A DNA stretch of 64,000 nucleotides, taken from positions 2,162,688 through 2,226,687 of the forward strand of contig CP009479.1 in NCBI GenBank assembly GCA_000965745.1, given 5' to 3'. The notes under the pieces are model-generated. The model ran no database searches. It was given only the letters and a program-made list of their open reading frames with translations, and was not told where the DNA came from. Below, one piece after another: positions 1 through 64,000 of the stretch; the first letter of the stretch is position 1; each line of letters starts with the position of its first letter. The translations under genes were made by a program, and so were the position numbers. This DNA is from an uncultured archaeon. Its GTDB lineage: Archaea > Thermoplasmatota > Thermoplasmata > Thermoplasmatales > Thermoplasmataceae.

Positions 1-1
1 T

Positions 2-2100: not shown

Positions 2101-2106
2101 GTAAAA

Positions 2107-2823
2107 ATGGTAGAGAAAACTAGCGGTTTTTTCAAGGTTATTCCAAGAGAGCTGTGGGAACCAAACTGGAGAGTGTGGTCATTCGTGCTTCTTCTTGTGG
2201 TTTCCGTGGGAACGTTCATAGAATTCCCAGTCGCACCATTCAATGGGTACGTTGATCCCTTCTATTCTCCAACAGTGCTCGTGCTTCCATTCGTAGGGCT
2301 CTTCAGGCTGACATGCTACGCTTACAGGAAAGACTATTACAGGCACGTGTTCAACCACCCGAGAAGTTGCATGACCCCTGCCAGAGCCGAGTCAAAGCAC
2401 AAAGGATACAGCGGTGAGACCAACCTCTTTGGAATAAGCAACCTCCACAGATACTTCCTTTACATAGGAATCGCAATCCTTCCATTCTTCTACTACGACT
2501 TTGTGACATCAATGTTCATAGGCGGGGCGTTCATGATCAGGCTTGGAAGCATTATCTTGCTTGTCAACGCAATACTTGTCTCACTCTGGACGTTCTCATG
2601 CCATGCATTCAGGCACCTGACCGGAGGAAACGTGGACTGCTACAGTTGCACTGCTGCCCCCAAGTTCAGGAAGGGATGGTTCAACAGGCAGTCACTCATG
2701 AATGAGCACCACGAGGCTTTTGCTTTCATCAGCCTTGCGTTTATTGTGGGAGTTGACCTTTACATGAGAGCACTGTCGGCAGGTTGGCCAATAGACTTCA
2801 CATTCCTGAGCTTCCACCTCTAG
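2107..2823 (+). CDS. Succinate dehydrogenase membrane anchor, Sdh1/type-F-like
   Basis: Hydrophobic helices with FRLTCYAYRK, HRYFLY, SCHAFRH..GG..DCYSC, H..FAF.SL motifs; directly after sdhB. Confidence 0.8.
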   Translation: MVEKTSGFFKVIPRELWEPNWRVWSFVLLLVVSVGTFIEFPVAPFNGYVDPFYSPTVLVLPFVGLFRLTCYAYRKDYYRHVFNHPRSCMTPARAESKHKGYSGETNLFGISNLHRYFLYIGIAILPFFYYDFVTSMFIGGAFMIRLGSIILLVNAILVSLWTFSCHAFRHLTGGNVDCYSCTAAPKFRKGWFNRQSLMNEHHEAFAFISLAFIVGVDLYMRALSAGWPIDFTFLSFHL

Positions 2824-2832
2824 GTGATCAAA

Positions 2833-3033
2833 ATGGAAGAAGAATATGAAAAGAAAAAATATCTCGGAACGGGTATAAGATACCCCCTGTTCTTCATCGG
2901 TGTCATGTTAATGGCCATAGGAGGAAACGCGTACAAATTCACGTCCTTCTCCCTGACCGGAATAGAAGCAATAGTCGGCATCGGGTTCGCAATTTTTGTG
3001 GCATCGATGCTTCCCGGCATGAAGAAGAAATAA
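2833..3033 (+). CDS. Small two-helix membrane protein, possible accessory Sdh subunit
   Basis: ATG at 2833 after GGTGA SD-like site; two hydrophobic stretches; ends the sdh operon. Confidence 0.6.
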   Translation: MEEEYEKKKYLGTGIRYPLFFIGVMLMAIGGNAYKFTSFSLTGIEAIVGIGFAIFVASMLPGMKKK

Positions 3034-3040
3034 TAACACA

Positions 3041-3075
3041 CTTTTTCCCTTAAACCCCCTTTTTGCTGCTTTTTG
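3041..3075 (+). terminator. Archaeal oligo-T terminator after sdh operon
   Basis: Several T-runs immediately after the last stop codon. Confidence 0.45.
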
Positions 3076-3114
3076 ATTGACTGGCAAACCTTAAATATTA
3101 TTTATTAATTATAG

Positions 3115-3137
3115 GTTGACAACTAATGGTTGTCAAC
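3115..3137. promoter_or_regulatory. Heat-shock operator palindrome GTTGACAAC-N5-GTTGTCAAC
   Basis: Perfect 9-bp inverted repeat between an AT-rich TATA region (~3090-3100) and the GAGGTG SD of hsp20. Confidence 0.75.
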
Positions 3138-3151
3138 AGAGGTGTAGATAT

Positions 3152-3691
3152 ATGGCAAGAAAAGACTTTGATGATTGGGATGAAGATTTCTTTGGAGACA
3201 TGTTCAGTGAGTTCGGCTTTGACTTCAAAAAGATGAACGAGCGCATGAGGAAGATATGGGACAGGATGCTTCACGACCCTGATTTTGCCACACAGGAACC
3301 TTACGTTTACGGGTTCACATACAAGGTCGGGCCGGAAGGCAAGCCCTATTTCCAGGAGTTCGGGAACATGCCGGGAATGAGGAGAGAAAGGGCAAACATC
3401 CAGCAGAAAGACGTTAGAGAGCCAATAACAGACATTACAGAAGACAAGGACAAGTCGTACTTCACGTTCGAGCTTCCAGGAATATCAAAAGAGAACATAG
3501 ACCTGAAAGTATCTTCCAGAAACGTAACCATCAGTGTAAAAGAGGGCACAAGGAAATACTACAAGAGCATCGATCTCGACTATGAGGTTAAGCCCGAATC
3601 TGCCAAGGCCAGGTTCGTGAACGGCATACTTGATGTTTCGCTGGAAAAAACAACGAAAGAAGGCTCCGGAAAAACCATAGACATCGAGTGA
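3152..3691 (+). CDS. hsp20: Archaeal small heat-shock protein Hsp20
   Basis: YGFTYKVGPEGKP..QEFGN, REP.TD, ELPG, A.F.NGILDV alpha-crystallin motifs; ATG 3152 with SD GAGGTG. Confidence 0.93.
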   Translation: MARKDFDDWDEDFFGDMFSEFGFDFKKMNERMRKIWDRMLHDPDFATQEPYVYGFTYKVGPEGKPYFQEFGNMPGMRRERANIQQKDVREPITDITEDKDKSYFTFELPGISKENIDLKVSSRNVTISVKEGTRKYYKSIDLDYEVKPESAKARFVNGILDVSLEKTTKEGSGKTIDIE

Positions 3692-3706
3692 CGTGAAGAG
3701 CGGAAA

Positions 3707-4309
3707 ATGGTTAAAGACGACCTTGATCTGTTCCTTACAGCCCTTGAAAACAGTACAAGAAGGGAGATACTCAAGAGGCTCACCCTTGAGGAATCCTACG
3801 CCCTTGAAATAAGCAAGTGGATCGGTGTATCACAGCAGGCAATAAACAAACAACTTGATCTGCTTGAAAAGTCGAGGCTGATAAGTTCGGCCGGGTTGAT
3901 GCCAAGCAACAGCGGCGCGCCAAGAAAGATCTACCGGCCAACCAATTTTTCCTCAATAATCATAGATTATTCTAGGAGTTTCTTCGAAGTAAAAAAATAC
4001 GAACTCGACTTCGATCTTGAAGAGAACCGGGAAAATGAATCAAGCACTGTGAAGGAGCTCATTGGGGAGCTTAAGGATGTCAACGAGAAACTCGATGATA
4101 TCATGAAAAAAAGAACAGAGCTGCTTTCCAGGAAAGACTCAATAATCATGAACATCAACAGCAGGATTGCGAGGGAGGCGAGCGACAACCTCCTGAGGGC
4201 GATTATTTCGACATTTCTTGAGACACTGGATGAGGAAGAAACGGCCGATAGGCTTTCCATGCCTCCCGAAGTTGTAAAAATCGTCGTCTCGGACTTCCTG
4301 AAGCTATAA
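3707..4309 (+). CDS. ArsR-like wHTH heat-shock regulator (Phr/HSR1-type)
   Basis: ALENSTRREILKRL...SQQAINKQLDLLEK...PRKIY plus coiled coil; downstream of hsp20. Confidence 0.8.
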   Translation: MVKDDLDLFLTALENSTRREILKRLTLEESYALEISKWIGVSQQAINKQLDLLEKSRLISSAGLMPSNSGAPRKIYRPTNFSSIIIDYSRSFFEVKKYELDFDLEENRENESSTVKELIGELKDVNEKLDDIMKKRTELLSRKDSIIMNINSRIAREASDNLLRAIISTFLETLDEEETADRLSMPPEVVKIVVSDFLKL

Positions 4310-5065
4310 TCTCTCCGCAAACTCATTCAGAAAAGTTTCCTCGGAGTCGTTCAGGGTCGAAGGTAACACCAGGGCGGCAGGATTTCCTTCCACACCACTT
4401 TTTTTAATTGACCCCATCGTGCCGAAAACCAGTCTCTGGCCCGGCTGAGAAACTGCTATTGCCACGCAAATATCCCTTTCAGGCTCAAGTATTCTGCCCT
4501 TTCTTCTCCTTTCGAGTTCCTCCAGGATTCTTACAGCCTCCTGCACAGGCATTGTCTTTCCGTCTTTCAGGTCAAGAAGAAGGAGTGTGTGTAGATCCAT
4601 TGAGATATTCTTCTCTATCTTGTCATAGACACTTGTTGGAAAGAAGCTCCTGCTTACGAATGGTATCGAGACAGGGGGGCCAAAACGATAGTGCATCAAT
4701 CCAAAAACGCCCGGAATTACGCTTATTATTGAAGAGTTTTCAAAAATTCGGACTTCGACGCCAGCCTTCATGGCGTCCAGGCGCAACTGGTTATGGGTGG
4801 TGGCGCTTAGAGGGTCTCCAGTAACTAGAAGGCAAACCTTTGTGTCCCTTGATTCGTCTATTATATCCTTTTCAGATTCAATGAAATCCCTGCCGGCTTC
4901 CAGGAGTTTCCTGCCCAGGGCGTTTCTGAGGTCAGCCATGGTTGAGCCCGGGGAGATGGAGGTGTAGGTTTCAAAATAGACTGAGTCGCAGGATTTCATC
5001 ACTTCAAATGATTCAAGGGTAATGCTTTTCGTGCCCCTCAGGCCCAGGCCAATTATGTTTAGCAT
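4304..5065 (-). CDS. dph5: Diphthine synthase
   Basis: IGLGL, ETYTS, GDPLSATTH, HTLLLLD motifs. Confidence 0.92.
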   Translation of the reverse strand: MLNIIGLGLRGTKSITLESFEVMKSCDSVYFETYTSISPGSTMADLRNALGRKLLEAGRDFIESEKDIIDESRDTKVCLLVTGDPLSATTHNQLRLDAMKAGVEVRIFENSSIISVIPGVFGLMHYRFGPPVSIPFVSRSFFPTSVYDKIEKNISMDLHTLLLLDLKDGKTMPVQEAVRILEELERRRKGRILEPERDICVAIAVSQPGQRLVFGTMGSIKKSGVEGNPAALVLPSTLNDSEETFLNEFAERL

Positions 5066-5067
5066 GC

Positions 5068-6282
5068 TCAGCGCGATATTTCCTCTTCTATCCTTACAAG
5101 CTCATTGAGCTTGGAAAGCCTCTCGCCACCGATGATTCCTGACTTTATGTATTTTGAGGAAAATGCCACAGCAAGGTGTGCAATGAAATCGTCTGTTGTC
5201 TCGCCGCTTCTGTGTGACACGACATTCTCCATGCCTGCGCGGGTAGCGAGGTCTACTGCCTCATACGTGGAGGTGAGTGTTCCGATCTGGTTGACTTTTA
5301 TAAGTATGGCATTGGTTGATTTTTCCTCTATGCCGCGCTCAATTCTCTTGGTGTTTGTAGTGTATAGGTCATCGCCGACTATGAGGCACCTGTTCCCTAC
5401 CGCCTTGGTTATCTCTGCGAACCCCTCGAAGGCATCTTCGTAAAGTGGGTCCTCCACAAGGGCAAACCCGTAATCGTTGACAAGTGATTTTACATAGTCT
5501 ATCTGCTCGTCCTCCGATTTCTTTGAATTCCTGTATACGTACTTTCCCTTCTCATAAAAAGAGGTCGCTGCCAGGTCCATTCCAAGATCGATTTTGACCC
5601 CGGTTTCTCCAGATACCTGTTCTGTCGCGTCCTTCAGTATATCTATGGCTTCTTCATCGGATATGCTCGCAGTCCAGGCACGCTCATCCCCAACGCCTAT
5701 GCTGACGTTTGGAAACTTGGCGGACAGAACTTCACCTATCTTCCTGTGCACCAGTGAGTTCACGTGTATCGATTTCAAAAAGGTGTCGCCATGTGCGGCT
5801 ACGTGGAATTCCTGAATAGTTGTTCCATTTGTCGAGTGCTTGCCTCCGCCGATCACGTTTCCGAGGGGCCATGGAATTCTATTGACAAAACTTCCTCCTA
5901 CAACTGAATACAACGGAATTCCCAGCTTGCATGCAGAGGCCTTAGCGTTAGCTATTGAGAGGGCAGTTGCCATATTTCCTCCCAGGAGGCCGAAGTTGTA
6001 TGTGCCGTCAAGCTCAGTGAGAACACGGTCAAATCCCCTCTGATCCAGAGAATTTCTTCCGATTATTGATGATTTTACGCTTGAATTAAAGAACTCAATT
6101 GAGGAATCGATTCCCTTGTTTGAGAACGCAATCACCTCGGTCGCTCCAGTGCTGGCTCCTGATGGTGCAGAGCAGCGACCGAAGGCTCCATCCAGGTAGA
6201 TATCTGCTTCTATCGTATACCTGCCCCTTGAATCCAGAACTTTCCTGACGTTTACGTCCCTGATTTCGAACCCTTTAACCAT
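5068..6282 (-). CDS. eno: Enolase
   Basis: [35 protein letters not shown]. Confidence 0.96.
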
Positions 6283-6324
6283 AACGATACCTAAACCAAA
6301 CTATTGATAAAAAACCTTCCCGGC

Positions 6325-6858
6325 TCATTCGTGTTTCTCAAGTGTACCGGAGTAGCTGACACAGAATGCGTTATACCTTTCCTTGTAAGCTGTCCAGAGT
6401 TGGACGTACCTGTCGGTCACTTCAGCCACAACCTTTGCCGGAATGCCAACGGCAATCTTCCTGTCCGGTATTACGTCCTTATTCTTGACGACCGCCCCTT
6501 CACCAACAGCGGACCACTCGCCCAGCTCCGCAAAATCTGAAACTACAGACCCCATTCCAATAACTGCCCAGTCCTTGATTTTCGCCGTATGGACAACTGC
6601 GTTATGCCCCATTGTGACATGACTGCCTATTCTGGTCGTCTCCCCGGGCCTGGAATGAACCACGCAGTTGTCTTCGATGGCGGTAAAGTCTCCAACCTCT
6701 ATCTTTCCATAATCCCCGCGCAGCACCGCACCGGGGCCAACCCATGTCCTCTTCCCTACTGTAACGTCGCCGATGACTGTCGCGTTGGGAAAAATATAAG
6801 CTTCCCCGTCAATCTTCGGTTTTCTCCCTTCATATCCATAGGAAGTCATTGGTTCCAA
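6325..6858 (-). CDS. Gamma-carbonic-anhydrase-like hexapeptide-repeat protein
   Basis: VIGDV, AVLRGD, IEDNCVVH, GHNAVVH. Confidence 0.9.
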   Translation of the reverse strand: MEPMTSYGYEGRKPKIDGEAYIFPNATVIGDVTVGKRTWVGPGAVLRGDYGKIEVGDFTAIEDNCVVHSRPGETTRIGSHVTMGHNAVVHTAKIKDWAVIGMGSVVSDFAELGEWSAVGEGAVVKNKDVIPDRKIAVGIPAKVVAEVTDRYVQLWTAYKERYNAFCVSYSGTLEKHE

Positions 6859-6880
6859 TCCCGTTTACGTATTAAAAACA

Positions 6881-7792
6881 TCATTCGCCCGCGATTACCT
6901 TCCTTTTTTCCCTGAACAGCTTCTCTATGTCGCCGTAGCCAAACCTGAACTCACTCATTGGAGTTTCTATGGCCTTCGATGAAACGATGATGCCCATGAT
7001 TATGGAATCGCTGATGCTCATTCCCTTCCACAGCCCCATGTACAGGCCTGACCTGAAAGAGTCACCTGCGCCTATTGTGTCGTACACTTTCTCTGCCGGA
7101 AGGATTGAAAAGTGATTGGAATCCCCATCCCGGAAAGCTGAAACCCCGCTCTGGCCACCGGTTATTATTATCGTTTCAATCTCCGACGTCAGTTCCTCAT
7201 GGGACTTTCCTGTCAGCTCCTTAAGTTTTTGGTATTCCGCTTCGTTCCCAACAAACATGTCTGCACGGTCTATGAATTTTTGAGCAGTTTCCCTGCTGTA
7301 CCTGTAGTGTATTTCCTGTCCCGGGTCAAATGTAACCTTGCTGCCCCCGAGCAGATCGAAAACTTTTGCGTATTCCTCCGGAGGGCCTGTTGAAAAATGT
7401 GCCCACTTGTAATCAGAATCAGCTGAAAAATTTACTGCGGGAGACCATGAATCCATGGGGCCCTGGAATACGTATGCCACCTGGTCATTGCCGTCGGAAG
7501 ATATATAGCAGACCGGACCGTAGCTGTCTTTCAGCTGGTCGACGTGTTTCAGGTCGATGCCAATGGACGAGAGGTATTCAAGGTATTCAGCGTGGGTCTT
7601 CGGAGATACTGCTGAGTAAAGGTCAAAATCAAGCCCAAGTTTTCTTGAGACTATTGCAAAATTCCCGGCCGTGCCACCAAAATTCTCGGATACGTCTGTC
7701 ACGTTGACCGACCCGACGCGCGGGAGTACTGGTACCCTTATCGATACATCAATGTTTATGTGACCAAAAAAAGCAAGGAAAGATGATGTCAT
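6881..7792 (-). CDS. PfkB-family carbohydrate/nucleoside kinase
   Basis: FGGTAGN, FDPGQE, DTIGAGDSF. Confidence 0.9.
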   Translation of the reverse strand: MTSSFLAFFGHINIDVSIRVPVLPRVGSVNVTDVSENFGGTAGNFAIVSRKLGLDFDLYSAVSPKTHAEYLEYLSSIGIDLKHVDQLKDSYGPVCYISSDGNDQVAYVFQGPMDSWSPAVNFSADSDYKWAHFSTGPPEEYAKVFDLLGGSKVTFDPGQEIHYRYSRETAQKFIDRADMFVGNEAEYQKLKELTGKSHEELTSEIETIIITGGQSGVSAFRDGDSNHFSILPAEKVYDTIGAGDSFRSGLYMGLWKGMSISDSIIMGIIVSSKAIETPMSEFRFGYGDIEKLFREKRKVIAGE

Positions 7793-7808
7793 CTCTCCCT
7801 TGATCCAA

Positions 7809-8465
7809 CTATCGTATTTGGTTATTGAGGTCTCTCAGGACGTTTCTGATTGTTACTTCGGAAACTCCTGCGAATTTTGAGATCTCGCCCTGAGTTCTCA
7901 GTTCACCCCTCTTCTGGCAGGAGATATACAAGCTTGCAGCTGCAATGGCGGAGGGCTTGAATGTTTTTGATCTCTTCTTCAGAGATTCTGAAAATTCAGA
8001 GCACGTGTCCTTTGCCATCTGGACGGTTCCCTCACTGATCATCAGCTTCTTCCCTATGGATGCTATCACAGCGTTGTGGTCAGGCATGCTCCTCTTGTAT
8101 TTTGGCTCCAGGTCAAGGATCTTCTTGTATGTCCTCATTACAAGAACCGGGTCCAGCTGGTCGGGGAACCTTTTGCTCTTTGACTTCCCATAGAACGAGT
8201 TTGGAGCAACATAGGTGTTCAGTTCCCTGGCGGCCGCAATTATGCACGCTGCTACGGTATACCTGAAATCCTTGCCCCTCATAAGATCCTTCTTGGTAAC
8301 ATTCTGGTAAACCTCAAGGCTCTTGATCTGAAGCTCCTTGGGAAGATTCAGAAATCTGTTGAGCTCGTCATAGTACTGCAGGAAAATCCTGTCAGATACA
8401 TTCCTTCTCATTATTGAAATTTTGAACTGGTTAAACCTTTTGGCAAATGATATTGAACTGTCCAT
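7809..8465 (-). CDS. TFB (TFIIB)-like protein, cyclin repeats only
   Basis: LMRGK....VAACI..AARE and AAASLYI....RTQ.EI...AGVSEVTIRN; no N-terminal Zn-ribbon. Confidence 0.8.
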   Translation of the reverse strand: MDSSISFAKRFNQFKISIMRRNVSDRIFLQYYDELNRFLNLPKELQIKSLEVYQNVTKKDLMRGKDFRYTVAACIIAAARELNTYVAPNSFYGKSKSKRFPDQLDPVLVMRTYKKILDLEPKYKRSMPDHNAVIASIGKKLMISEGTVQMAKDTCSEFSESLKKRSKTFKPSAIAAASLYISCQKRGELRTQGEISKFAGVSEVTIRNVLRDLNNQIR

Positions 8466-8470
8466 TCACT

Positions 8471-8863
8471 TCACCCCTTCACGATGTCCTTGTAGAAATT
8501 CTCTACATTCACAATTTCCGTTTTTTCACTCCGGCCCATTATGTCTTTTATCTCAGACGCCACCAGATTTTCTTTTCCATAGAGCATTGAATAAAATACC
8601 TGCCCCCCTTCGTGATGCATTACAATCTTCTCAGGAAATGAAAATTTTTCAAAGAATTTCGTGCATATTGCCCTGAACATTACATAGGATTCTTCCCCAA
8701 CGTAAGACAGAGATTCCACTATAATCCCTCTTCCTCTTCTGGTTATTTCGTTCACTTGGAGATTATCCTTTGTGAAATAGTAACCTACCTCGCGGATGCT
8801 TCCTTTATGTGCTTTTTCGCGCTTCGTCTGAAGGTACCGTACATTTCTCATGGATAGTTTCAT
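8471..8863 (-). CDS. Hypothetical protein
   Basis: 130-aa ORF, 5 bp upstream of the TFB-like gene, AT-rich promoter region upstream. Confidence 0.6.
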   Translation of the reverse strand: MKLSMRNVRYLQTKREKAHKGSIREVGYYFTKDNLQVNEITRRGRGIIVESLSYVGEESYVMFRAICTKFFEKFSFPEKIVMHHEGGQVFYSMLYGKENLVASEIKDIMGRSEKTEIVNVENFYKDIVKG

Positions 8864-9100
8864 TTCGACCCACTTCTAATACGTATTACTAAAGAAGGTA
8901 TATAAAAGTTACGCCATTTTTTTCATCAAAATTATTAAATAGGGATGATGCTTTGTTTCAAATTGTACCTGTCTTTTAAATACTCGATATCAAAAATTCG
9001 ACAAAAATGAACAAAACATTCACATTTCAAAAATATGAGAACCGGTAAAACCAGTTAAAATTGTCCAATTAAGTATTAGAATAATTGGACTCAGGTCAGA

Positions 9101-9532
9101 TTACAAAGTAAGTTCAAGCTCCACTTTGGCCATGTTGCCGAACACAATAGTGTCCTTGTCTGGACAGTCCACAGGGAGAGAGAGCGACTTGTTCTCCTTG
9201 AGAGATTTGAACGCGTCCAGAAACCTTCCAAGGTCGTTGCGGCTATCATGTATAATGAGGAAGTTCCTGGTGCCCGGCGTAACGCCGACTGCCCCATAAG
9301 CCTTAGGTATCTGAGAGTGCCCGGAAAGATATAGCATCAGTAGAGTTGCGTCATCCCTGACCTTTTTCCCCCTGTTCCGGTCCACATGTTCCATGGCAGC
9401 CCTGATTTGAACTTCAGAAAAGATCTTGTTTCTGTCCAACACGGCAAAAAAATTTTCAGCAGTCCGTAAAAAATCACGGACCTTGTTTGATTCCAGAGAT
9501 ATATTTGAACTGAGATATGTGAAATCAGGCAA
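9101..9532 (-). CDS. cgi121: KEOPS subunit Cgi121-like
   Basis: Q..AA.EH, LMLYLSG.SQI..A...VGV pattern. Confidence 0.7.
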
Positions 9533-11477
9533 CGTTTGTTCCTGCCCTTCCTTTCGGTGGGCCGAATTTTTTAGCGTTGAGGAATTCAGCTATTCTTCCG
9601 AAGAACCTCTGCCTCTCAGGTGAGGGGACGAGCGAGTTTTCGAGAACATCCTGGATGTTTGCTGCCGGAATTATTTCTATCTTCCCCATATGCTCCTGGT
9701 CAAGGACTATGTCCCCGAGGTTGGCTGCAGGCACTATTACTCTCTTCAGGCCGGAGTCTATGGCAGCTTCAATCTTTGCACTGACCCCTCCAACAGGAAG
9801 GACGTTTCCCCTTACACTGAGGGAGCCTGTCATGGCAACCTCCTGGTCTACTGGTATGTCCTCCATTGCAGATATCACTGCAGTTGCGATGGAAATGCTT
9901 GCCGAATCTCCTTCCACACCTTCGTATGTGCCGACAAACTGTATGTGAATGTCGACGTCTGAGATGTCCTTGCCACTCATCTTCTTAAAGACAGCAGAGA
10001 CGTTCTGGACCGCTTCCTTTGCAATATCGCCGAGCTTTCCCGTTGCGATTACAGTGCCGTTGCCCTTATGCTGCGCAGGGGTAACCTCAGCAACTATTGG
10101 CATCACGATTCCAGTATATTCTGCCATTCCAGAGCCGCCACCCATAACAGCCAGGCCGTTGATTGTCCCGATAGCCTCTCCTTCACTGAGGAAGGTCTTG
10201 TAGACTTTCTTGATCTCTATAGCCTTGTCAGCTACCTGCTGCTCGAGAGGCTTACTCAGAGCCCTTGCCCTTATCACGTGTTTTGCATTCACTATGGATG
10301 CGTTCTCGGATATTGCAATGTCACCAGCAACACGTATCAGACCACCAAGTTCCCTGAGCCTGAGGGTAAGCTTTCCTCTTCTTCCGGAGCGTTTCTGCGC
10401 TTCCTTGATTATCTCGATGACTGCAGATGTGTCAAAGTGTGGTATTTTTTTGTCCTTTGAGATTTCCTGGGCTATGAACTGAACCAGTTTTGTCCTGTTG
10501 TCATCGTTGTCATTCATTGTGTTGTTGACATATACTTCGTAACCGTAGCCCCTTATCCTTGACCTCAGTGCCGGGTGTATACCCTGAACTGCGTCCAGAT
10601 TCCCGGCAGCAACAAGAACAAAGTCACATGGGACCGGTTCGGTCTGCACCATTGCACCAGCACTTCTCTCACTCTGACCCGATATCGGGAATTTCTTCTC
10701 CTGCATAGCAGTAAGGAGAGCCTGCTGGCTTTCTGGCCTCAACAGGTTCATTTCATCCACGAAAAGGACTCCCCTGTGGGCCTTGTGGATATTCCCCGCT
10801 TCTACCCTGTCGTGAGACGGAGTTTCCAGTCCCCCGGACTGAAAGGGATCGTGCCTGACGTCTCCGAGCAGTGCTCCGGAGTGTGCGCCTGTTGAATCCA
10901 CGAAGGGCGGCTTGTCGCTGCCCGTGTGTGAAACGAGTAATTTCGGGATTAACGCCCGTTCGCTTCTCATTGCAGGATTAAAAGCCAGTGCCATGTAGAT
11001 GAAAGCGGCTGCCATAATTGCAAAGAATATGACTGTCCACTGCCCCAGGACCACGGCTGCGATAATTCCCAGGAATATTACCGAGAAAATTATGAACATT
11101 ACCCCCCTGGACCTGTCTTTCTTTTCCCTTTCAGCCTTTATCTGGTACTGCCTGACTATCTCCTTGCCTTTTCCGGCAGGAAGCGTCTTGACCTTTGGTC
11201 TGTTGTTGTCCTCGGGATTAGGGAGGATCATAATGTCTTCCAGCTCTTCCTTTGGCAGAAAGTCCACCATTGATTGAGCCAGCATGGATTTCCCAGTTCC
11301 GGGATCTCCTATAAGTAGGACATGCCTCTTTTGCAGGGCAGCTTTTTTGACTACCTGCCCAGCTTCATCCTGTCCTATTACTTGATCGAAAAGAACCTTG
11401 GGTATTTGTACATCCTTTGTGCTTTCTATGTTTAGCTTGGATACCCATTGTTCTACTTCTTCCATTTCTTCTTGCAC
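9525..11477 (-). CDS. lonB: Membrane-bound ATP-dependent protease LonB
   Basis: [10 protein letters not shown] insert, [21 protein letters not shown] catalytic Ser, PVGGVSAK. Confidence 0.96.
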
Positions 11478-54156: not shown

Positions 54157-54229
54157 GGGACCGTGGGGTAGCTTGGTATCCTACCAGCTTGGGGTGTTGG
54201 TAACCTGAGTTCAAATCTCAGCGGTCCCA
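54157..54229 (+). tRNA. tRNA-Pro(GGG)
   Basis: GGGACCG/CGGTCCC acceptor stem, anticodon arm CCAGC-TTGGGGT-GTTGG, T-loop TTCAAAT; starts 1 bp after rpoN stop. Confidence 0.93.
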
Positions 54230-54239
54230 TCATATTCAT
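54225..54239 (+). other. Candidate 15-bp target site (duplication) of the casposon, TCCCATCATATTCAT
   Basis: Last 5 nt of tRNA-Pro plus 10 nt, directly before GGGGATATA; second copy expected outside the window. Confidence 0.6.
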
Positions 54240-54283
54240 GGGGATATAGATAAGACCGAAAAACGTGCCGCTTTTTATATCCC
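54240..54283 (+). repeat. Probable left terminal inverted repeat of the casposon
   Basis: Starts GGGGATATAG; internal IR GGGATATA (54241-54248)/TATATCCC (54276-54283); true TIR length unknown without right end. Confidence 0.65.
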
Positions 54284-54295
54284 ATTTTAAAAATT

Positions 54296-54392
54296 TTAGT
54301 CGCCTTTATCCGATTTCAGGTAAATCTCTAAAAGGGTTTTGGAAATTCTTGATTGAGTCTTCAACTAATTTCCATTTCTGTTTGAAATTCTT
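54296..54392 (-). pseudogene. Degenerate duplicate of casposon polB 3' end
   Basis: Reads NFKQK/NGN*LKTQSRISKTLLEIYL vs polB NFKQKIRNGNGLKNKSKISKMLFESYL; shared 16-mer at 54375-54390 and 55813-55828. Confidence 0.75.
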
Positions 54393-54421
54393 ACCCTACT
54401 GACTTATTAGATTTTGTAGGA

Positions 54422-55663
54422 TCATTTATTTTGATCTCCCATCCATAAGGGTCTACTGAGTATGCATTGTAATACAATGATAGTGGGTACAAAGAAATCA
54501 TAAAACCACTGAGAAATGGTAGGTTCTTCGACAATATTCGAATGAACATAGTCATTAAGCTTGGAATATATCTCCGAGTAAATTATATCTCCAAAATATG
54601 AACCTTTTGCACTCTTTTGTATCTCTCTAAAAGAATCTACTACACACGAATTAATTCCCTCTAATTCTTCCCTTTGTAATTGAAGTTTAATCAACTTAGA
54701 CATTGCTCTAGTGTCAGGTCTTGAATAAATCCCGTAAATGGTTGCATTGTTCTCACAATCAGAATAACCACAAAGATAACCTTCTCCCTTATCAAATTCT
54801 GGCCCAATGAAAGTTAACTGAGAAAGTTCTTGTTTCAGGTCTTTAGTCAGTTCATTTTTGATTCCGAATCTCTTTTTTAAATCTTCTAACAAATTGCCTT
54901 CGTGTTGCTTGCACGCTCTCAAAGTAAACTCATCGTTGCTCATCAATATCCAGTAAAAATATTCCGTATTCCCAAGAGTCTTAGTTGCGATATCTGGCCA
55001 TTCATCAGTATCCTTTATCAAGTTCATAAAAAATTCATTGAGTGATTTTTCCAATAATTTTTTCAATCTTTGCTCTTCCTTGGTTGTAATTTTATCCTTA
55101 TCAAAATCAAACTTTGAAACGATATCTGGATAAAATTTATCTGATAGTTCTCGCAATGAGCTTATTGCACGTTTTCTTTCTTCCCCAAATTCTAATATTG
55201 GAAGAACTAAACCGTCTAAACTCAAAGGTTTCATTTTATCCCAATATCCAGAAAAAAAGGCATCTGCCATTGGATTAGTGCCTTCCTCATTTTTTTGGCT
55301 ATCTGGTACCCATGAAGAAACAGTAAACAGACCTGCGAAAAGAAGGTCTAACACCGATCTAATCTCCCTAAGTGAATACTTGATGTATCCCTCTCCAGCC
55401 AACTTTATTGAAATCCCTAATTCTCCAAAAATATCTGCAAGTAGAAGTTTAAACTGTTCTTCAATCTTCTTTCTAGTATTATCCGATGAAATAGATTCCA
55501 CATACCATGAATAATTGTCAAAGAGTTCAGATAAGTGGGAAATAGCTTTAGAAATCTCTTCATAAGTTGGATATGGAATATTGAAAATTTCATAAAAATC
55601 TTTGAGAAGAAGTCCTTTTTGTGCCCATTGGGTGATTCCGATGATATCTAGTTTTCTTGACAC
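54422..55663 (-). CDS. Casposon cargo protein, possibly HEPN-like (DUF5677-type)
   Basis: 413-aa ORF with LREIRSVLD and IYSKLNDYVH motifs; TTTATAAA box at 55681-55688. Confidence 0.6.
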   Translation of the reverse strand: MSRKLDIIGITQWAQKGLLLKDFYEIFNIPYPTYEEISKAISHLSELFDNYSWYVESISSDNTRKKIEEQFKLLLADIFGELGISIKLAGEGYIKYSLREIRSVLDLLFAGLFTVSSWVPDSQKNEEGTNPMADAFFSGYWDKMKPLSLDGLVLPILEFGEERKRAISSLRELSDKFYPDIVSKFDFDKDKITTKEEQRLKKLLEKSLNEFFMNLIKDTDEWPDIATKTLGNTEYFYWILMSNDEFTLRACKQHEGNLLEDLKKRFGIKNELTKDLKQELSQLTFIGPEFDKGEGYLCGYSDCENNATIYGIYSRPDTRAMSKLIKLQLQREELEGINSCVVDSFREIQKSAKGSYFGDIIYSEIYSKLNDYVHSNIVEEPTISQWFYDFFVPTIIVLQCILSRPLWMGDQNK

Positions 55664-55728
55664 TCTATTCTCGCCTTCGATTTATAAAGGAATTGACCTA
55701 TTTTAAACCTGCTTTGTCGTAGGTCACT

Positions 55729-56539
55729 CTAAATGTCCGTCAAACTCAAATAACTCTCAAAAAGCATCTTGCTAATCTTTGATTTGTTCTTCAATCCATT
55801 TCCATTTCTGATTTTCTGTTTGAAATTCCTTAAACCCCTTTCTGAAATACCCAACGCCTTGACTTCACTGGGCTTGAGTTTTAACGTCCATTGCATAAAC
55901 GCTTGTTTGTTCTCGTATTCAAGATAAGAATCATTGCTTACCCCGAATACACTAACTTCATCGATATTATTTGATTCCTTCCCAATGTATCTGATTCGGT
56001 CTGCGAATACGTGTTTCCTTTGGGCCTTGTTGTTAACATAATCGAACTTGTTATCGTTATGTCTCACGTACGCTGTTAACACATCTTCAAGGGATTTCCA
56101 GTATTCATTAGAAGGCAAAGTCAATGCAATTGAAGATTTTCCAGTCCTGTAATCTACAAATTCCCTATACTGGATTCCGTTTATGTCCTTTGAAAATGGT
56201 AATGACGGAATAACATCATTCTTCTCAGACCCTACGAGAATGAAATTGAAGGGCTTTATCTGTCTATTAAAGGGCTTCTTGTGATTCATCTCCTTGAAGC
56301 GATTAAGAATTGAAGGTTTCGAGATGGTAATTTGAGATACTGCAATCTTTTCTGAGTAATCTTCAAATTTATTGTTCAAGATATCTTTCCAAATCTGTTT
56401 TCCATTTATACCAAGGAGATGGCCCAATCCATGGGTGGAATACTTGAGTATTTCTACCTCTCCTTTGACAATCCTATACAGACAATATCGCTTTGCTGAA
56501 ATTCCATAAAACAAGATATCGTTCAACGGATTCTTGTTT
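55729..56539 (-). pseudogene. polB: Casposon family-B DNA polymerase, C-terminal fragment
   Basis: FYGISAKRY (KxY motif), HGLG, IKPFNF, IGKE; cut by IS3 left end. Confidence 0.85.
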
Positions 56540-56617
56540 TGTGCTGGCCCCTTAAATAATTGGACAACATTGGCTTATAGTAATAGAAAAGTATATATAG
56601 GGGGGTTCTAGGGGGAA

Positions 56618-56920
56618 ATGACTCGCAGATACTGGAAAGCGGAAGAGAAACTGGCACTCATCAACGAGATCAAAGAAAGCGGACATGTCGTTGAAACCTG
56701 CAGAAAATATTCTGTGGATCCATCCATGTTCTACCGTTGGAAACAGGCCTTCGATGCACTAGGCATGGATGGGCTCAGATCCCGTACAAGGTCCTTGGAA
56801 CCAGGCCTCAGAAAGCTGAAGAAGGAGAACGAGAGATTGAAGAAGATGCTTGCAGAGAAGGAACTGGAGGTATCACTGCTCCAGGAAGCATATAAAAAAA
56901 CGAGGAGGAAACCGCGTTGA
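56618..56920 (+). CDS. IS3 transposase OrfA (HTH + leucine zipper)
   Basis: CRKYSV.PS.FYRWK, LKKENERLKK.LAEKELE. Confidence 0.92.
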   Translation: MTRRYWKAEEKLALINEIKESGHVVETCRKYSVDPSMFYRWKQAFDALGMDGLRSRTRSLEPGLRKLKKENERLKKMLAEKELEVSLLQEAYKKTRRKPR

Positions 56921-57813
56921 TCAATGAGTATGCTGGACGTGGGCTCTCAACGACCAGAATCCTGGAACTTCTAAGGATACCACGGAGCACATTCTATCAT
57001 TCATCGCCTGCATTGCATCTCAAGAGAGGGAGGAAGCCTTCATCGATGACTGAACGCATTGTTGGCCAGGATATCATAATGATTCCCGATGATCAGGTCC
57101 TTGCCGACATCATTGAGTTGCTGTCAAGGGAATTTGTATGCTATGGATACAGGAAGGTCACCAAACATTTGCAGCGCACTGGCTACAGGATCAACAGGAA
57201 GAAGGTCTTCCGCATCATGAAAGAGAACCATCTTCTCAACCACACATACAACTACCGCAGCCCTGCAAAGAGGGTGGTTGAATCCATTGTCAGGGTTCAT
57301 AACCCGAATAAAGTCTGGGAGATGGACATCAAGTATGTGTACATACAGGGAGAGAATCGGACAGCATACCTGTTTGCAATGATTGACTGTTATACAAGAG
57401 AAGTTGTCGGAAAGTACCTGGGATACCACTGCACCTCTTCAGATGTGAAGATGGCAATGGATTTTGCCTTCATGGACAGGGGAATAGAGGCAATATCCAG
57501 TGTCAGGATCCGCAGTGATAATGGGACTCAATTCGTATCACGGATAGTGGAGCTGTTTCTCGCTTCATCCCATATCGAACATGAGAGGATCCATCCTGCA
57601 ACGCCCAAGGAGGACGGTTTCATCGAATCCTTCAATTCCATCCTTGAGAAGGAAGTGATCAGAAGGTTCGAGTTCTCTTCATTCCAGGATGCTGATGACA
57701 CCATTGATAGGTTCATTGCATTCTACAACAACGAGAGACTACACTCAGCCATAGGCTATAAAGCACCAAGGGAGGTTTATGAAAGATGGAAAGAAAATCT
57801 AATAGAAGAATGA
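56917..57813 (+). CDS. IS3 transposase OrfB (DDE)
   Basis: YGYRKV, WEMDIKY, SDNGTQF, IESFN, YNNERLHSAIGY..P; -1 frame relative to OrfA. Confidence 0.93.
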   Translation: MINEYAGRGLSTTRILELLRIPRSTFYHSSPALHLKRGRKPSSMTERIVGQDIIMIPDDQVLADIIELLSREFVCYGYRKVTKHLQRTGYRINRKKVFRIMKENHLLNHTYNYRSPAKRVVESIVRVHNPNKVWEMDIKYVYIQGENRTAYLFAMIDCYTREVVGKYLGYHCTSSDVKMAMDFAFMDRGIEAISSVRIRSDNGTQFVSRIVELFLASSHIEHERIHPATPKEDGFIESFNSILEKEVIRRFEFSSFQDADDTIDRFIAFYNNERLHSAIGYKAPREVYERWKENLIEE

Positions 57814-57863
57814 GCATGACTCATAAGCCAATCCTGTCCACAATTAGGGGACCAAACCACAGA

Positions 57864-58586
57864 CTAATACAATTCAGATGTTATTCTAACGTCATTTATG
57901 TTGTAGTCGATGTATTTCTCGTTGATTTTCCCATGCTGTTCAATCTGAGTTTTTCTTGAAACGCTAAAATCCCTGCATGCAGAATCCAGAGAATGTGATC
58001 TGTCAGTTAAAGCAAAAGTGAGGGTCTTGAGGTCAACAAAGTATCCGGAATAATGCCTGTATTTCTTGTCGCTAGCTTTTCTCATGGGTTTCGCAAAGGA
58101 AATGAAAGACCTTTTCTGGTCTATGTTCTGTATCCGAATTCGTGGATTCCTCACATCCTCTGACAGCTTCAGTGAAAATCCGTCTTTTGTTTTGCGTGAG
58201 ATTCCATATCCAATGGCCAATCTTGACAGGTCAAAGGGCAAATTGAAGCCAATGACCTCAGCCCGCATTCTGAATGCGTATGGGTAGAACACATTATCCA
58301 CAAAGTCCCTGATTCGCATAACAACTATGTTATTCTCAGACCCGTAATCTTCTATGATTTTCCCGTCATTATCAGAAATATCACCATAAAACAGATACCA
58401 GTCCTCTTTGAAGCCGGTGCTAATCCTTGTTCTGATAAGACATGATCCAAAATTCAGGTTCTGATACTGGTCTGTGGTGGTTTCAGTATCAAGAATCAAA
58501 ACGATGTTTGAATTGTGAGATTCCGGTTCTTTGTGTTTGAGTTCCGACCTGTTATCTGTGTATGCCCTCACAAAGATATCGCTCAC
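57864..58586 (-). pseudogene. polB: Casposon family-B DNA polymerase, N-terminal 3'-5' exonuclease fragment
   Basis: ExoI LDTETT, ExoII GFNLPFDL, ExoIII YNINDV; ends 2 bp from IS right end. Confidence 0.87.
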
Positions 58587-58984
58587 AGGATCACCGGATA
58601 TCTTGATGTCAGGTATTCAGCAATCCTCTTGTATATGCCAATACCAGTTCTTTCATGCTTCAATTCACAAATGTCAATAATTCCCCTCTCCAAGAGAATT
58701 TCAGAATTCTGGTAATTCCATAATCTATGTTTGTCTGTTAGCTTCCTATGACATTCCAAACATACCGTTATAACCTCGTTGCCATGACTCCTGCCTCTGA
58801 TGTGATGTACTTCCAACTTTATTGGTGATCTGCAAATCTCACACTCGTTCTTTTTGTCTCTATGTTCATTCTCTAAAATATCTGTTATCCAGTCTTTTGC
58901 CTCTTGGTATTCATTGTCTACTATTTCCTTTGCTCTGAACAGGGTCTCGAATATTGTGCTGGATATGGATATCTTGGAAATCAA
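58583..58984 (-). CDS. HNH endonuclease
   Basis: CEIC...LEVHHI......N..TVC..CH. Confidence 0.85.
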   Translation of the reverse strand: MISKISISSTIFETLFRAKEIVDNEYQEAKDWITDILENEHRDKKNECEICRSPIKLEVHHIRGRSHGNEVITVCLECHRKLTDKHRLWNYQNSEILLERGIIDICELKHERTGIGIYKRIAEYLTSRYPVIL

Positions 58985-59631
58985 GACTTGTAAATCTCCC
59001 AGAATTCCGGTTCTTCCTGACTTTCAGCTATTTCGTAAAGCTTATCTGGGTCAGTTTCAAAGTGATGTAATTTACCATTTGCATCTTTGAAAGGTTTCTT
59101 GAATGGCTTCAAAACATCTGTGTTTCCTGTTCTCAGAAATTCTCTGATAGCAGAGTTATACTTTCCTATTCTTGATGCAGTTCGTGAATCTCTAACTTCA
59201 ATCCATGACTGTTTTCCATTTTCGTTTATGCTCATTACTCTTGATATTCTATCCTGAGACTTTGCAACCCATTTTCCTCTGATTTTTCTAAAAGAATTGG
59301 TGTTCTTGATAACTGTCTCTGGTGAAGTGTGCAACTCTCTAGATGCACTTGAAAGTGATTCTCCATTCCTGACTTTCCTCAGAACTTCAAGCGATTTTTC
59401 CCTTTGATTCAGGTCTTTCTTTGAAATGGATTTCCATGAACGTCTGTATATTGGTTCTGGTTTTGTTGCTGATACAACTCTTTCCCTGGATTTCGGATGA
59501 CCCCTAAGCTGTGATAATGAAGCGGTTGGATATTTTGCATGCAACCTGGCGATACGATTCCTGTAGGATTCTGATCCTTTGAAACTGGATAACCAATCCT
59601 GAAATGACCGGTATTCCGGTGAAAATGTCAT
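58981..59631 (-). CDS. Casposon-associated basic HTH protein
   Basis: GESLSSASRELHTSPETV HTH-like segment; 4-bp overlaps with neighbours. Confidence 0.65.
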   Translation of the reverse strand: MTFSPEYRSFQDWLSSFKGSESYRNRIARLHAKYPTASLSQLRGHPKSRERVVSATKPEPIYRRSWKSISKKDLNQREKSLEVLRKVRNGESLSSASRELHTSPETVIKNTNSFRKIRGKWVAKSQDRISRVMSINENGKQSWIEVRDSRTASRIGKYNSAIREFLRTGNTDVLKPFKKPFKDANGKLHHFETDPDKLYEIAESQEEPEFWEIYKS

Positions 59632-60288: not shown

Positions 60289-60339
60289 CACATATTATGT
60301 GGAAATATTCTAATAGACAGTTGACTATACTTTAGTCAA
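60289..60339. promoter_or_regulatory. Divergent control region with two palindromes
   Basis: CACATA-T-TATGTG (60289-60301) and TTGACTA-N5-TAGTCAA (60321-60339). Confidence 0.65.
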
Positions 60340-60968
60340 TGGCTTATGACAAATTCCGAACTCAAAAGGAAACGAAAGACAAGAATGAGAGGAAAATTTT
60401 GAATTTGCTCTATGATTCACCAATGAGATTCAAGGACTTACTTGAAGAAACAAGACTGTCAAGAGCTGGTCTTGATATTATATTGAAAAGACTTCAAGAC
60501 ACAAAACAGATAGAATCCATTATCGATGGTGGGAAACCTGCTTATTCACTAACAAAGAAAGGGGAGAAAACAGTCAAATCTATCCCCATTATTCAGGATA
60601 ACATAGAATCGATACTCAATGTAAAACACGAATATTCCAATGAAATGGGAAAATTTCGTCTTGGATATAAGGGAATAGACTTTGATGTGTTGAGGGATGC
60701 CCAAGTAGATGCCAACCTCACAAACACCTTTGAGGAAATTGCCAAGGAATGTCTCAAGAAATCCGAGAATACAATAGCAGATATTCCTGATATTGTCAGG
60801 GATAAATCAGAACTCAAAGGAAAAATGGTTCTTGCTCTCACAATAGATTTTGATGACATGAGAGAGCAATTTATGAAAAGAAACAATAAAGCTTGGAAAA
60901 AATTTGGCCTGAAATGGGAAAATGAGGAAGGTTGGGAAAGACTATTATCAGGGGAGGATCCAAAATGA
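60339..60968 (+). CDS. wHTH (MarR/ArsR-like) transcription regulator
   Basis: KIL.LL...PMRFKDL...T.LSRAGL...LKRL...Y.LT.KG. Confidence 0.8.
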   Translation: MAYDKFRTQKETKDKNERKILNLLYDSPMRFKDLLEETRLSRAGLDIILKRLQDTKQIESIIDGGKPAYSLTKKGEKTVKSIPIIQDNIESILNVKHEYSNEMGKFRLGYKGIDFDVLRDAQVDANLTNTFEEIAKECLKKSENTIADIPDIVRDKSELKGKMVLALTIDFDDMREQFMKRNNKAWKKFGLKWENEEGWERLLSGEDPK

Positions 60969-62230
60969 ACCCATTGCTGTTATCTGGATTTGGAATAAGC
61001 ATTGAGGTTAACAAAGCTCGCCTGACCATAAAGCAAAAGAATGACATTTTGACGTTTGAGCCTCACAGAATGCCATACGATTCCATTGTCATTGACGGTC
61101 ATTACGGTTCTATGAGTTTTGAGGCCATGCGTTGGTTATCCAAACATGATGTACCCGTAATTTTGTTAAACTGGAATGGCAATCTTTTATCAATAATGTC
61201 TCCAAAAGAGGGCAATAGTGGTCAACTGAGAATGAAACAGTACGAAAAATACCTTAAAAAAGAGGAAAGAACGGTAATAGCAGAAAAAATAATTAAAGAA
61301 AAAATAGGAAAATCGCTTGCTTTGCTTGAAAATTTAGCAGATTTTCATCAGGAAATAAACTTTGAAAAAATTAAAAAGGCATTTTCTAAGGAATTTGAGG
61401 ATTTTAACCTGAAAAAAGAGAAAATAAACATTCTAAAAGATGAAAAAACCAAGAAAAATAAAACAAATGCAGAAAAAAGGGATTTAAAAAAGAAAATAGC
61501 TGACCTAATGATGTATGAAGGCAGAATAGCATCAGCCTACTGGTCAGAATTGTCAGGAATTTTCAATAAAATAGCACCAGAATTTAATTTTGAGTCCAGA
61601 AAAAATCTCTCTTATTCCTGGAATATGAATGCATCAGACCCGATAAATGCACTACTGAATTATGGATATGCAATTCTTGAAGGAATGGTCAGAAAATACG
61701 TAAACACAATAGGGCTTGACCCATCTATTGGATTCTTGCATGAAATAGCACCCTCAAAATATCCACTGGTATATGATTTACAGGAATTGTTCAGACACGT
61801 TGTGGATTATTCGGTTATACAGATTCTTGAATCCGGTTTAAAAAAATCAGATTTCATTATCACTGAGAATTATCACATCCGGTTGAAGCCCAATACTGCA
61901 AGGTTATTGATTGAAAGAATAAAAGAGAATTTCAATCAACGTTATGATTTCAGAAATAAAAAGCATAGCCTTGAAAATATAATGCTTGAGAATATTCGGG
62001 AATTCAGCAAATATCTGGTGGATAAAAAAAATACACTTGATTTTGTAATGCCTGATATTGAGATAAAGAGGAATGACAGCACCAAGGTTCGGAAAAAAAT
62101 TGAGTCAATAACACCAGAGGGAAGAAAAAAACTAAAAATCAATAAATCTACATTGTGGTATCAGCAAAAGAAAATTAAAGAAGGGAAGCCGGTTAAACTC
62201 TATGAGAAGACTAAAGTGAGAATCTCATGA
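60965..62230 (+). CDS. cas1: Casposase (solo Cas1 with C-terminal HTH)
   Basis: YEG..A..YW, DPINALLNYGY, GLDP.IGFLH, LVYDLQELFR, C-terminal LKINKSTLWY; ATG 60965 overlaps upstream stop. Confidence 0.93.
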   Translation: MNPLLLSGFGISIEVNKARLTIKQKNDILTFEPHRMPYDSIVIDGHYGSMSFEAMRWLSKHDVPVILLNWNGNLLSIMSPKEGNSGQLRMKQYEKYLKKEERTVIAEKIIKEKIGKSLALLENLADFHQEINFEKIKKAFSKEFEDFNLKKEKINILKDEKTKKNKTNAEKRDLKKKIADLMMYEGRIASAYWSELSGIFNKIAPEFNFESRKNLSYSWNMNASDPINALLNYGYAILEGMVRKYVNTIGLDPSIGFLHEIAPSKYPLVYDLQELFRHVVDYSVIQILESGLKKSDFIITENYHIRLKPNTARLLIERIKENFNQRYDFRNKKHSLENIMLENIREFSKYLVDKKNTLDFVMPDIEIKRNDSTKVRKKIESITPEGRKKLKINKSTLWYQQKKIKEGKPVKLYEKTKVRIS

Positions 62231-63158: not shown

Positions 63159-64000
63159 ATGAAGAATTCCGGGGGTCACGAAGAATACAACATTGATTTC
63201 GAAAGAATTGTAGAGCTCATATCAAAATTTGAACATGCCAAGAAATCCGGTGAAATCAAGAATTACAATGAAGAATCAACAAAGAAGGATTTCATCTTAC
63301 CTTTGTTTGAAGCTCTTGGATGGAATGTATCCAATAGAGCCAAGAAAAACGATTCCATAAGTGCGGAAGAAACCATTTCCAAGAAGAGAGTGGATTATGG
63401 ATTCCGCATAAACGGTATTCCCAAGTTTTTCCTTGAAGCAAAATCCCTGAAAGAAGATTTCATACATACCAACAGGTCTTATGTCACACAGGCAATAGAT
63501 TATTCGTGGATGAAATCGTGCAGTTGGGCCATACTTACAAATTTTGAAACCATATCGGTAATAAATGCAGACATAAGAGAGAGCAATTTCACCAACAGTA
63601 TTTTCTTTACACTTCATCCAAGCGATTTCCTTAATGATGACAGATTCACACTACTTTCAAGAGATGCCATAGAGAACGGTGAGCTTGACAAACTTGCTAC
63701 AAAATGGGGAAGGAAACAGGTCAAAAATCCAATCAATAAACAACTTCTACAGGACATGATACATTTCCGTGAGATTCTTTCAAAGGATATTGTGAAAAAT
63801 AATCAAAACAAGCATCTAACTCAAGAAGATTTAGATGAATCGGTCCAAAGGATTCTTGACCGACTCATTTTCATAAGAAATGCTGAAGATAGGGAACTTG
63901 AAGAAAATCGTTTGCAGTCCGATCTAAGGCAATGGGCATCAAAAGGGAAGGGTCAACTGGTCAGAGAAATTTCAAAGGTATATGCTTATTTCGATCAACA
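63159..64000 (+). CDS. Type IIG/HsdR_N-like restriction-modification enzyme, N-terminal part (runs off window; absent from ORF track)
   Basis: NEESTK..FI.PLFEALGW, RVDY, FLEAK, QA..Y, ILTNFE, QRILDRLIFIR.AEDR; no stop to window end. Confidence 0.85.
   Translation, partial: MKNSGGHEEYNIDFERIVELISKFEHAKKSGEIKNYNEESTKKDFILPLFEALGWNVSNRAKKNDSISAEETISKKRVDYGFRINGIPKFFLEAKSLKEDFIHTNRSYVTQAIDYSWMKSCSWAILTNFETISVINADIRESNFTNSIFFTLHPSDFLNDDRFTLLSRDAIENGELDKLATKWGRKQVKNPINKQLLQDMIHFREILSKDIVKNNQNKHLTQEDLDESVQRILDRLIFIRNAEDRELEENRLQSDLRQWASKGKGQLVREISKVYAYFDQ

Follow-up and report, generated by a model that had tools for sequence, protein, structure and literature searches.

How does a casposon take up a cargo gene at its very tip, and what trace does the event leave? 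Casposons have been proposed as the source of the CRISPR adaptation module. It is poorly understood how genes enter and leave them and which segments of their long and variable terminal inverted repeats (TIRs) are important. The question is raised by a stretch of 64,000 nucleotides of archaeal DNA (the window), the final 64 kb of a single contig of 2.227 Mb, in which a gene for a 413-aa protein stands between the present end of a polB gene and the left TIR. The first-pass annotation reported a fossil copy of the polB 3' end on the far side of this gene. It proposed that polB once ended next to the left TIR and that a new polB tail had arrived together with the 413-aa gene, by recombination with a related casposon or by duplication-insertion, at an element end that thereby served as a route for cargo capture.

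The casposon and its target site

The locus belongs to a 13.2-kb family-2 (A. boonei-like) casposon, the tRNA-proximal half of which lies inside the window. The element runs past the end of the genome record and continues at base 1; positions in this continuation (locus L001) are given as G000:C1. The integration target is a tRNA-Pro (GGG) gene at 54157..54229 on the plus strand (ARAGORN). Its 3' end is targeted and the gene is left undisrupted, its last 4 nt (CCCA) falling within the target site duplication (TSD). The left TSD copy, CCCATCATATTCATG, is 15 bp long (54226..54240) and has an exact direct second copy immediately outside the right TIR (G000:C1 3409-3423), in line with the TIRs and 14-15-bp TSDs of family 2. 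The left TIR covers 54241-~54392, the right TIR covers G000:C1 ~3283-3408, and GC content falls from ~50% to ~35% directly after the tRNA gene. The empty site is seen in a genome of the same genus, G604, where tRNA-Pro is followed directly by the host flank; in G000 this flank picks up again only at C1 ~5693. Directly past the casposon is a remnant, ~2.3 kb long, of a tyrosine-integrase element (G000:C1, L001, 3424-5709). It has an ORF with a weak match to the Phage_integrase C-terminal part (3256-3678, minus strand), thioredoxin-like ORFs and an MNT/HEPN pair (4689-5674), and it closes with a 17-nt copy of the tRNA-Pro 3' end (5693-5709). G604 carries neither the casposon nor this remnant.

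Rightward of tRNA-Pro, the gene order is the 413-aa ORF, a polB piece, an IS3-family element, a second polB piece, HNH and HTH genes, cas1, mrr and a type IIG restriction-modification (R-M) gene. The casposase gene cas1 (60932..62230, plus strand; Pfam Cas_Cas1, E=7e-57) stands alone, and its product has a C-terminal HTH. The core further comprises an HNH nuclease (58583-58984, E=1e-4) and two HTH proteins, one a winged-HTH protein with weak HxlR/ArsR matches (60339-60968) and the other (58981-59631) a homologue of a 227-aa protein with a weak HTH_28 match in the sister element L002 described below. The type IIG (Eco57I-like) R-M gene occupies 63159-64000 of the window and continues over L001 (G000:C1) 1-3236, so that both this gene and the casposon straddle the point where the genome record ends and begins. 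A second insertion sequence of ~1.25 kb (L001 ~17-1268), encoding a 399-aa transposase with weak ISH6/IS1-type matches, interrupts the R-M gene.

The polB gene is dead. Its C-terminal fragment (55729..56565, minus strand) matches residues 617-889 of the 905-aa frame in L002 (tblastn, 78% identity), and its N-terminal, exonuclease fragment (57855..58652, minus strand) matches residues 1-266 (tblastn, 86% identity). Codons 267-616, i.e., the 350 codons of the polymerase core, are missing from the tblastn alignment and are replaced by the IS3-family element (56561..57840, plus strand; Pfam HTH_Tnp_1 and rve), which has 18-nt inverted repeats (56561-78 / 57823-40) and the reading frames orfA (56618-56920) and orfB (56917-57813). 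Since the polymerase core is lost to this insertion, the casposon is unable to replicate itself. No Pfam, NCBIfam or PDB match was found for polB in sequence and profile searches, and PHROG returned a weak DNA-polymerase match for a full-length relative only. Full-length relatives contain the motifs DxE, NxxFD, YxxxD, DFLSMYPT, KxxxNxxYG, DTDS and KRY, and several homologues have precomputed PF00136/PF03175 assignments. Judged by these motifs and assignments, the gene is a family B polymerase, and the family B polymerase with C-terminal HTH that is typical of family 2 is represented here by two fragments only. Only two TIR cores occur in the whole genome. Because polB lacks its core codons, the R-M gene is split and no more than these two cores are present, the element is regarded as a single, non-autonomous copy. 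It is a further member of the family-2 casposons, one that bears an informative trace of terminal cargo capture.

Three copies of the polB tail

The live-type tail of polB lies on the minus strand at 55729..55835 and, read from 55835 to 55729, encodes NFKQKIRNGNGLKNKSKISKMLFESYLSLTDI followed by the stop codon of ORF 55729-56526. An identical tail ends the intact 873-aa polB P0038. The fossil lies at 54296..54392 on the same strand. Read from 54392 to 54296, it gives NFKQK, a frame shift at an 8-bp gap, NGN, an in-frame TAG, and then LKTQSRISKTLLEIYLKSDKGD up to its stop codon at 54296-54298. The TAG stands where the live tail has a Gly codon. Reading the sequence bore out the details on which the fossil had first been proposed, namely 13/20 identical residues over NGN..YL, an exact 16-mer (GAATTTCAAACAGAAA) shared by fossil and live tail, and an 8-bp deletion between CAGAAA repeats in the fossil.

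The significance check against shuffles that had been suggested for this similarity was run. Fossil and live tail align locally with a score of 47, compared with 17.9 +/- 2.9 for 2000 dinucleotide shuffles, none of which reached 47 (z=10). When the fossil was compared by blastn with the whole 2.23-Mb genome, the best non-self match was the polB tail (E=2.5e-5), and in a repeat search the pair emerged as the top direct repeat (68 nt, 74%, spacing 1430). The region is short and AT-rich (34-38% GC), and it could be argued that no fossil exists and that the likeness is due to chance or to shared A-rich, low-complexity composition. This is extremely improbable, as 0/2000 shuffles reach the score (z=10-16 for the TIR tail copies), the polB tail is the best genome-wide match, and frame, stop position and distance to the terminus agree with live polB genes in at least 14 relatives. 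The shuffle test together with the comparative register rules it out. The stretch thus has significant similarity, a lost frame and a position that fits the ancestral arrangement, and the proposal of a fossil polB 3' end is upheld. Its similarity to several polB tails is about equal (62-67% identity), and therefore its source lineage cannot be named.

The fossil is also the inner part of the left TIR. The outer, non-coding part (54241..54295), with the terminus GGGGATATAGATAAG..., is identical to the right end at 51/56 positions, i.e., only ~91%, and to the polB-side end of L002 at 54/55 positions (98%). The TIR core GCGGCACGTTTT..CTTATCTATATCCCC is common to relatives. With blastn, left positions 54240-54334 match G000:C1 3316-3409 in inverted orientation over 95 nt at 87%, and the left/right similarity runs inward past the fossil's stop codon to at least 125 nt. 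The right TIR accordingly contains a twin of the fossil at G000:C1 ~3283-3353, reading ..IAKILFESYLKSDKAE and a stop codon; on the plus strand toward the terminus the right end gives ..IEKKSKIAKILFESYLKSDKAE and a stop, followed by the same 55-nt outer repeat. Because the last gene stops at 3236, this right tail copy lies under no ORF. It is the better preserved of the two, and its match to the live tail (42/50 nt by blastn, z=15.7) is closer than that of the left copy (z=10). The two TIR copies match each other with z=11. Both end in ..YLKSDK(G/A)(D/E), whereas the live gene ends in ..YLSLTDI. The right copy is clear over only ~70 nt; an alignment extended as far as the NFKQK codons falls short of significance (z=1.5). 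An inverted TIR copy at the junction of polB and cargo was searched for and not found, and neither was a TIR with a TSD copy at ~55700 that could serve as an alternative left end of the element. The initial interpretation proves right for the most part, though not complete, and it changes on two points. A former position of polB beside the left TIR is well supported. On the first point, the fossil is not a free-standing leftover and forms part of the inner TIR, with a twin on the right. For annotation, the lesson is that a short polB-like stretch beside a tRNA gene belongs to the repeat and marks no second element.

The element tip in relatives and its cargo

The annotation had also called for relatives in which polB abuts the TIR, and at least 14 loci of this kind were found. 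A scan with the polB C-terminal fragment yielded 69 loci, and in ten of them (L008, L009, L011, L013, L014, L015, L018, L021, L022, and L023) the stop codon of a live polB is 52-71 nt from the terminus ..CTTATCTATATCCCC. More loci with the same 52-71-nt distance, among them G634, G073, G091, and G659, came from a terminus pattern search in 401 genomes of the class. In these at least 14 loci the terminus is followed by a TSD-like stretch and mostly then by a tRNA 3' end. Given live stops at 52-71 nt across relatives, a polB that abuts the tip is the norm for the lineage. The fossil's stop, 55 nt from its terminus, is in the register of the live polB stops of these relatives, which lends good support to the view that polB once ended adjacent to the left TIR. 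In other relatives the gap between polB and terminus is 146-711 nt, and no duplicate of the element's own polB tail was found in the gaps of L003, L005, L006, L007, and L010. In L021, large polB-like ORFs are interspersed three times in succession with C-terminal pieces of Cas1 (..LWYQKKKIKEGK..) before the terminus (1928-10351), an array that resembles tandem or partially duplicated casposons.

In some relatives the TIR itself contains the polB end. The two ends of the G545 element, which sit on two contigs of a MAG (L086 and L097, contigs C17 and C28), are identical over 376 nt that comprise 56 nt plus the last ~106 polB codons; this is the clearest case of a TIR containing a polymerase 3' end. 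At least 76 intact polB codons are present at the distal end of the G633 element. As the fossil's stop is in register and the TIRs of some relatives contain the polB end, polB here will once have ended inside the TIR. Tails of the fossil type occur in real full-length polBs, with P0049 ending in ..YYLKSDKPD and P0057 in ..NYLESDKVE. The exact pre-insertion state, in which this polB with a KSDK-type tail is set against this TIR, was not found among the relatives compared.

The closest complete relative is L002, from a Thermoplasmata MAG. It is syntenic gene for gene with the casposon described here, its polB frame is intact (905 aa), its polB C-terminal region is ~78-79% identical, and its Cas1, which ends ..STLWYQQKKIKEGKPVKLYEKTKVKIS, is 83% identical over the full length. 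The slot between polB and TIR is occupied in L002 by a 461-aa ORF that is unrelated to the 413-aa protein. A 39-nt stretch between this ORF and the outer TIR matches the right fossil of the present element at 29/39 positions (z=4.9), and the distal TIR of L002 retains ..KSDKVK before a stop codon. The assignment of the L002 fossil as specifically L011-like was not significant. Two close elements thus carry different cargo in this slot, and both have their own fossil; this supports the idea of the element end as a route for cargo capture.

The cargo of the present element is the 413-aa gene (54422..55663, minus strand), of which 29 nt of 3' flank (54393..54421) separate the stop codon from the fossil. 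In the spacer between cargo and polB (55664..55728, minus strand), an archaeal-type TATA box, TTTATAAA (55681-55688), was read from the sequence. It stands 17 nt ahead of the GTG start and resembles a promoter belonging to the gene itself. The protein family is conserved, with 36 homologues, all unnamed (P0003, one of the nearest, is at 87%), and it is rare, being found in 4/151 genomes sampled from the order. The AF2 model of the protein has a pLDDT of 86. No match was found in Pfam, NCBIfam and PHROG, Foldseek with the AF2 model found nothing, and an ESM Atlas search gave sub-threshold leads only. VIA-align of the model listed small HEPN proteins (2hsb, Z 9.4; 3o10, Z 9.1; 1ufb, Z 8.4) amid generic helical bundles of equal Z. 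When compared with the HEPN motif Rx4-6H, the protein contains RACKQH, in which H254 is invariant and R249 lies outside the invariant and near-invariant columns. Residues C251, H254, C298, C303, H374, and C400 (CxxH ... CxxxxC) are invariant in the family, a pattern that hints at possible metal binding in a protein that is otherwise helical.

Outside any casposon, a homologue with 73% aa identity is found in genome G254. The DNA match there covers ~54370-55763 of the window at 77% identity, includes the spacer and takes in the last 33 nt of polB (FESYLDMKDI and stop). It ends at the 14-mer TTTGAGAGTTATTT, the point from which the sequence resembles the TIR tail copies; preservation of the inner start of the left fossil in G254 was not significant (z=1.1). 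The intact polB P0038 is 99% identical to the window's fragment and ends in the same ..FESYLSLTDI, and the intact P0040 ends in ..FESYLDMKKL. From the linkage in G254 and the tails of P0038 and P0040 it follows that the live-type tail and the 413-aa gene are an old, linked pair. This is the second point of change: the polB tail that had been called new accompanies the 413-aa gene in another genome, and it is a natural tail type of the nearest polBs. In the metagenome fragments L078 and L084, a homologue of the 413-aa gene is found directly downstream of cas1; in a third fragment, L085, one is close to a casposon-like terminus at the same tRNA-Pro target. The 413 family is roving casposon cargo. 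Scans of viral contigs with the cargo and the polB tail returned nothing. In G254, the module is flanked by two ~100-nt copies that are 72% identical (L074 14815-14922 and 16349-16457). Further copies of this repeat are found at four or more sites elsewhere in G254, and at least six more genomes of the family contain it; it may be a MITE-like dispersed repeat. The notion that the 413 module is a cassette that makes ~100-nt target duplications was ruled out, as the flanking repeats are a dispersed multi-copy sequence.

Possible routes of cargo capture and known systems

The best explanation of the whole locus, and in our view a highly probable one, is that a module of promoter and 413-aa gene wedged itself in beside a tail-bearing TIR and that the tail copy left behind decayed into the fossil. 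This explanation builds on the three tail copies, the geometry of TIRs and TSDs, the ancestral arrangement in relatives and the different cargo in the slot of the sister element, all of which are established. In this lineage polB would be the terminal gene, and the TIR would extend beyond its stop codon into the last codons, which encode the C-terminal HTH. Because the TIR overlaps the polB end, every element would carry the polB tail a second time, as a non-coding copy in its opposite TIR. In an ancestor, the module would have come between the polB stop and the terminus. The polB gene would have retained its working tail, and the tail copy joined to the terminal 55 nt would have lost its coding role and decayed through a stop codon and an 8-bp slippage deletion. 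The present fossil would be this decayed copy, with its twin persisting in the right TIR.

For the duplication of the tail, we lean, by a little, toward the exchange of a whole end (a TIR with its tail, plus cargo) through a crossover in or beside the conserved polB tail. The partners might have been related casposons, the two arms of one casposon, or members of a tandem array. End exchange is favored because the TIR tails share one type that differs from that of the live tail, the cargo is found elsewhere at the cas1-side end, and long tail-bearing TIRs provide homology. Ranked second, and rather unlikely in our judgment, is insertion in situ, in which a circle with the 413-aa gene and a tail copy would have undergone a single Campbell-type recombination with the resident tail, which would have placed a direct copy of the tail on either side of the cargo. 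The structure is exactly that, a ~97-nt direct repeat, 1430 bp apart, around a unique segment, and recombination between the two copies would bring polB back to the TIR. Casposon circles have been proposed as an intermediate (PMC10359463), but no circle or excised form is known, the similar-looking repeats of G254 are a dispersed repeat and no target duplication, and the last 7 codons differ wholly between the copies, which is unexpected unless the circle came from another lineage.

An origin from two elements at the same target has also been considered and is unlikely. An older casposon at tRNA-Pro would have decayed to its left TIR with tail and the 413-aa gene, beside a second casposon; the internal, head-to-head TIRs would have been deleted, and both would now move, or have moved, as one element. 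The fossil and the live polB would then come from different elements, in keeping with the difference between the KSDKxx and SLTDI tails. Cases in which one target holds tandem casposons, remnants or solo TIRs are on record (PMC4046053, PMC4779613), the two outer TIRs are not more than ~91% identical, and the 413 family is terminal cargo in other casposon fragments. Against a composite origin, the window contains no internal TIR core and no third TSD copy. The two TIRs resemble a matched pair in that both carry the same KSDK-type tail; in G254 the live-type tail is physically joined to the 413-aa gene, and L002 has the same layout with different cargo.

Returning to end exchange, we tentatively extend it to a more general possibility: the coding sequence of the polB C-terminal HTH might double as inner TIR and thus as a homology landing pad for swaps of ends (TIR, tail and neighboring cargo) among casposons or between the arms of a single element, in which case the polB-proximal tip would be a general cargo slot and tail fossils would record the events. 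In the A. boonei casposon, TIRs of 37 bp are enough for integration in vitro (PMC5137440). The inner TIR may therefore be dispensable, and the fossil may reflect neutral drift. Does the inner TIR have a role in excision or replication, and are casposon ends exchanged as modules? The present locus and its relatives document the insertion of cargo at one end in a concrete and datable form, and they reveal a lineage of A. boonei-like elements in which the TIR overlaps the polymerase gene.

In poxviruses, adenoviruses, linear plasmids and Polintons, terminal repeats reach into the terminal gene and leave a partial copy of it at the other end, and the ends of such TIR-bearing replicons can be swapped or extended by recombination. 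Unlike these replicons, a casposon is an integrated transposon that is moved by a Cas1 integrase, and we know of no established mechanism of replication or end repair for casposons. In the casposon literature searched, no description of a polB-TIR overlap or of a terminal cargo slot was found.

Among casposons, the A. boonei element targets the 3' end of tRNA-Pro with a 15-bp TSD (PMC5137440, PMC4046053). The element described here resembles AciBoo-C1 and family 2 (PMC4046053, PMC5137440) in that Cas1 and PolB each have a C-terminal HTH and are accompanied by HNH and two HTH proteins, and in its TIRs, 15-bp TSD, tRNA-Pro 3' end overlapped by 4 nt and cargo of the R-M type. It differs from them in its dead polB, in the interruption of its type IIG R-M gene by a second IS, and in a TIR (at least 125 nt) that at each end of the element includes a decayed polB tail. 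Methanosarcina mazei is known to have solo TIRs and tandem remnants of casposons (PMC4779613). As in M. mazei, decayed casposon pieces stay at the target site and tyrosine-integrase elements use the same tRNA target, here at G000:C1 3424-5709. Unlike in M. mazei, the decayed piece is located inside a TSD-bounded element, where it is part of a working-looking TIR and not a free remnant. Overall, the locus is a tidy record of cargo capture, with 1.4 kb of cargo set between polymerase and tip, in a known kind of mobile element and not a new system.
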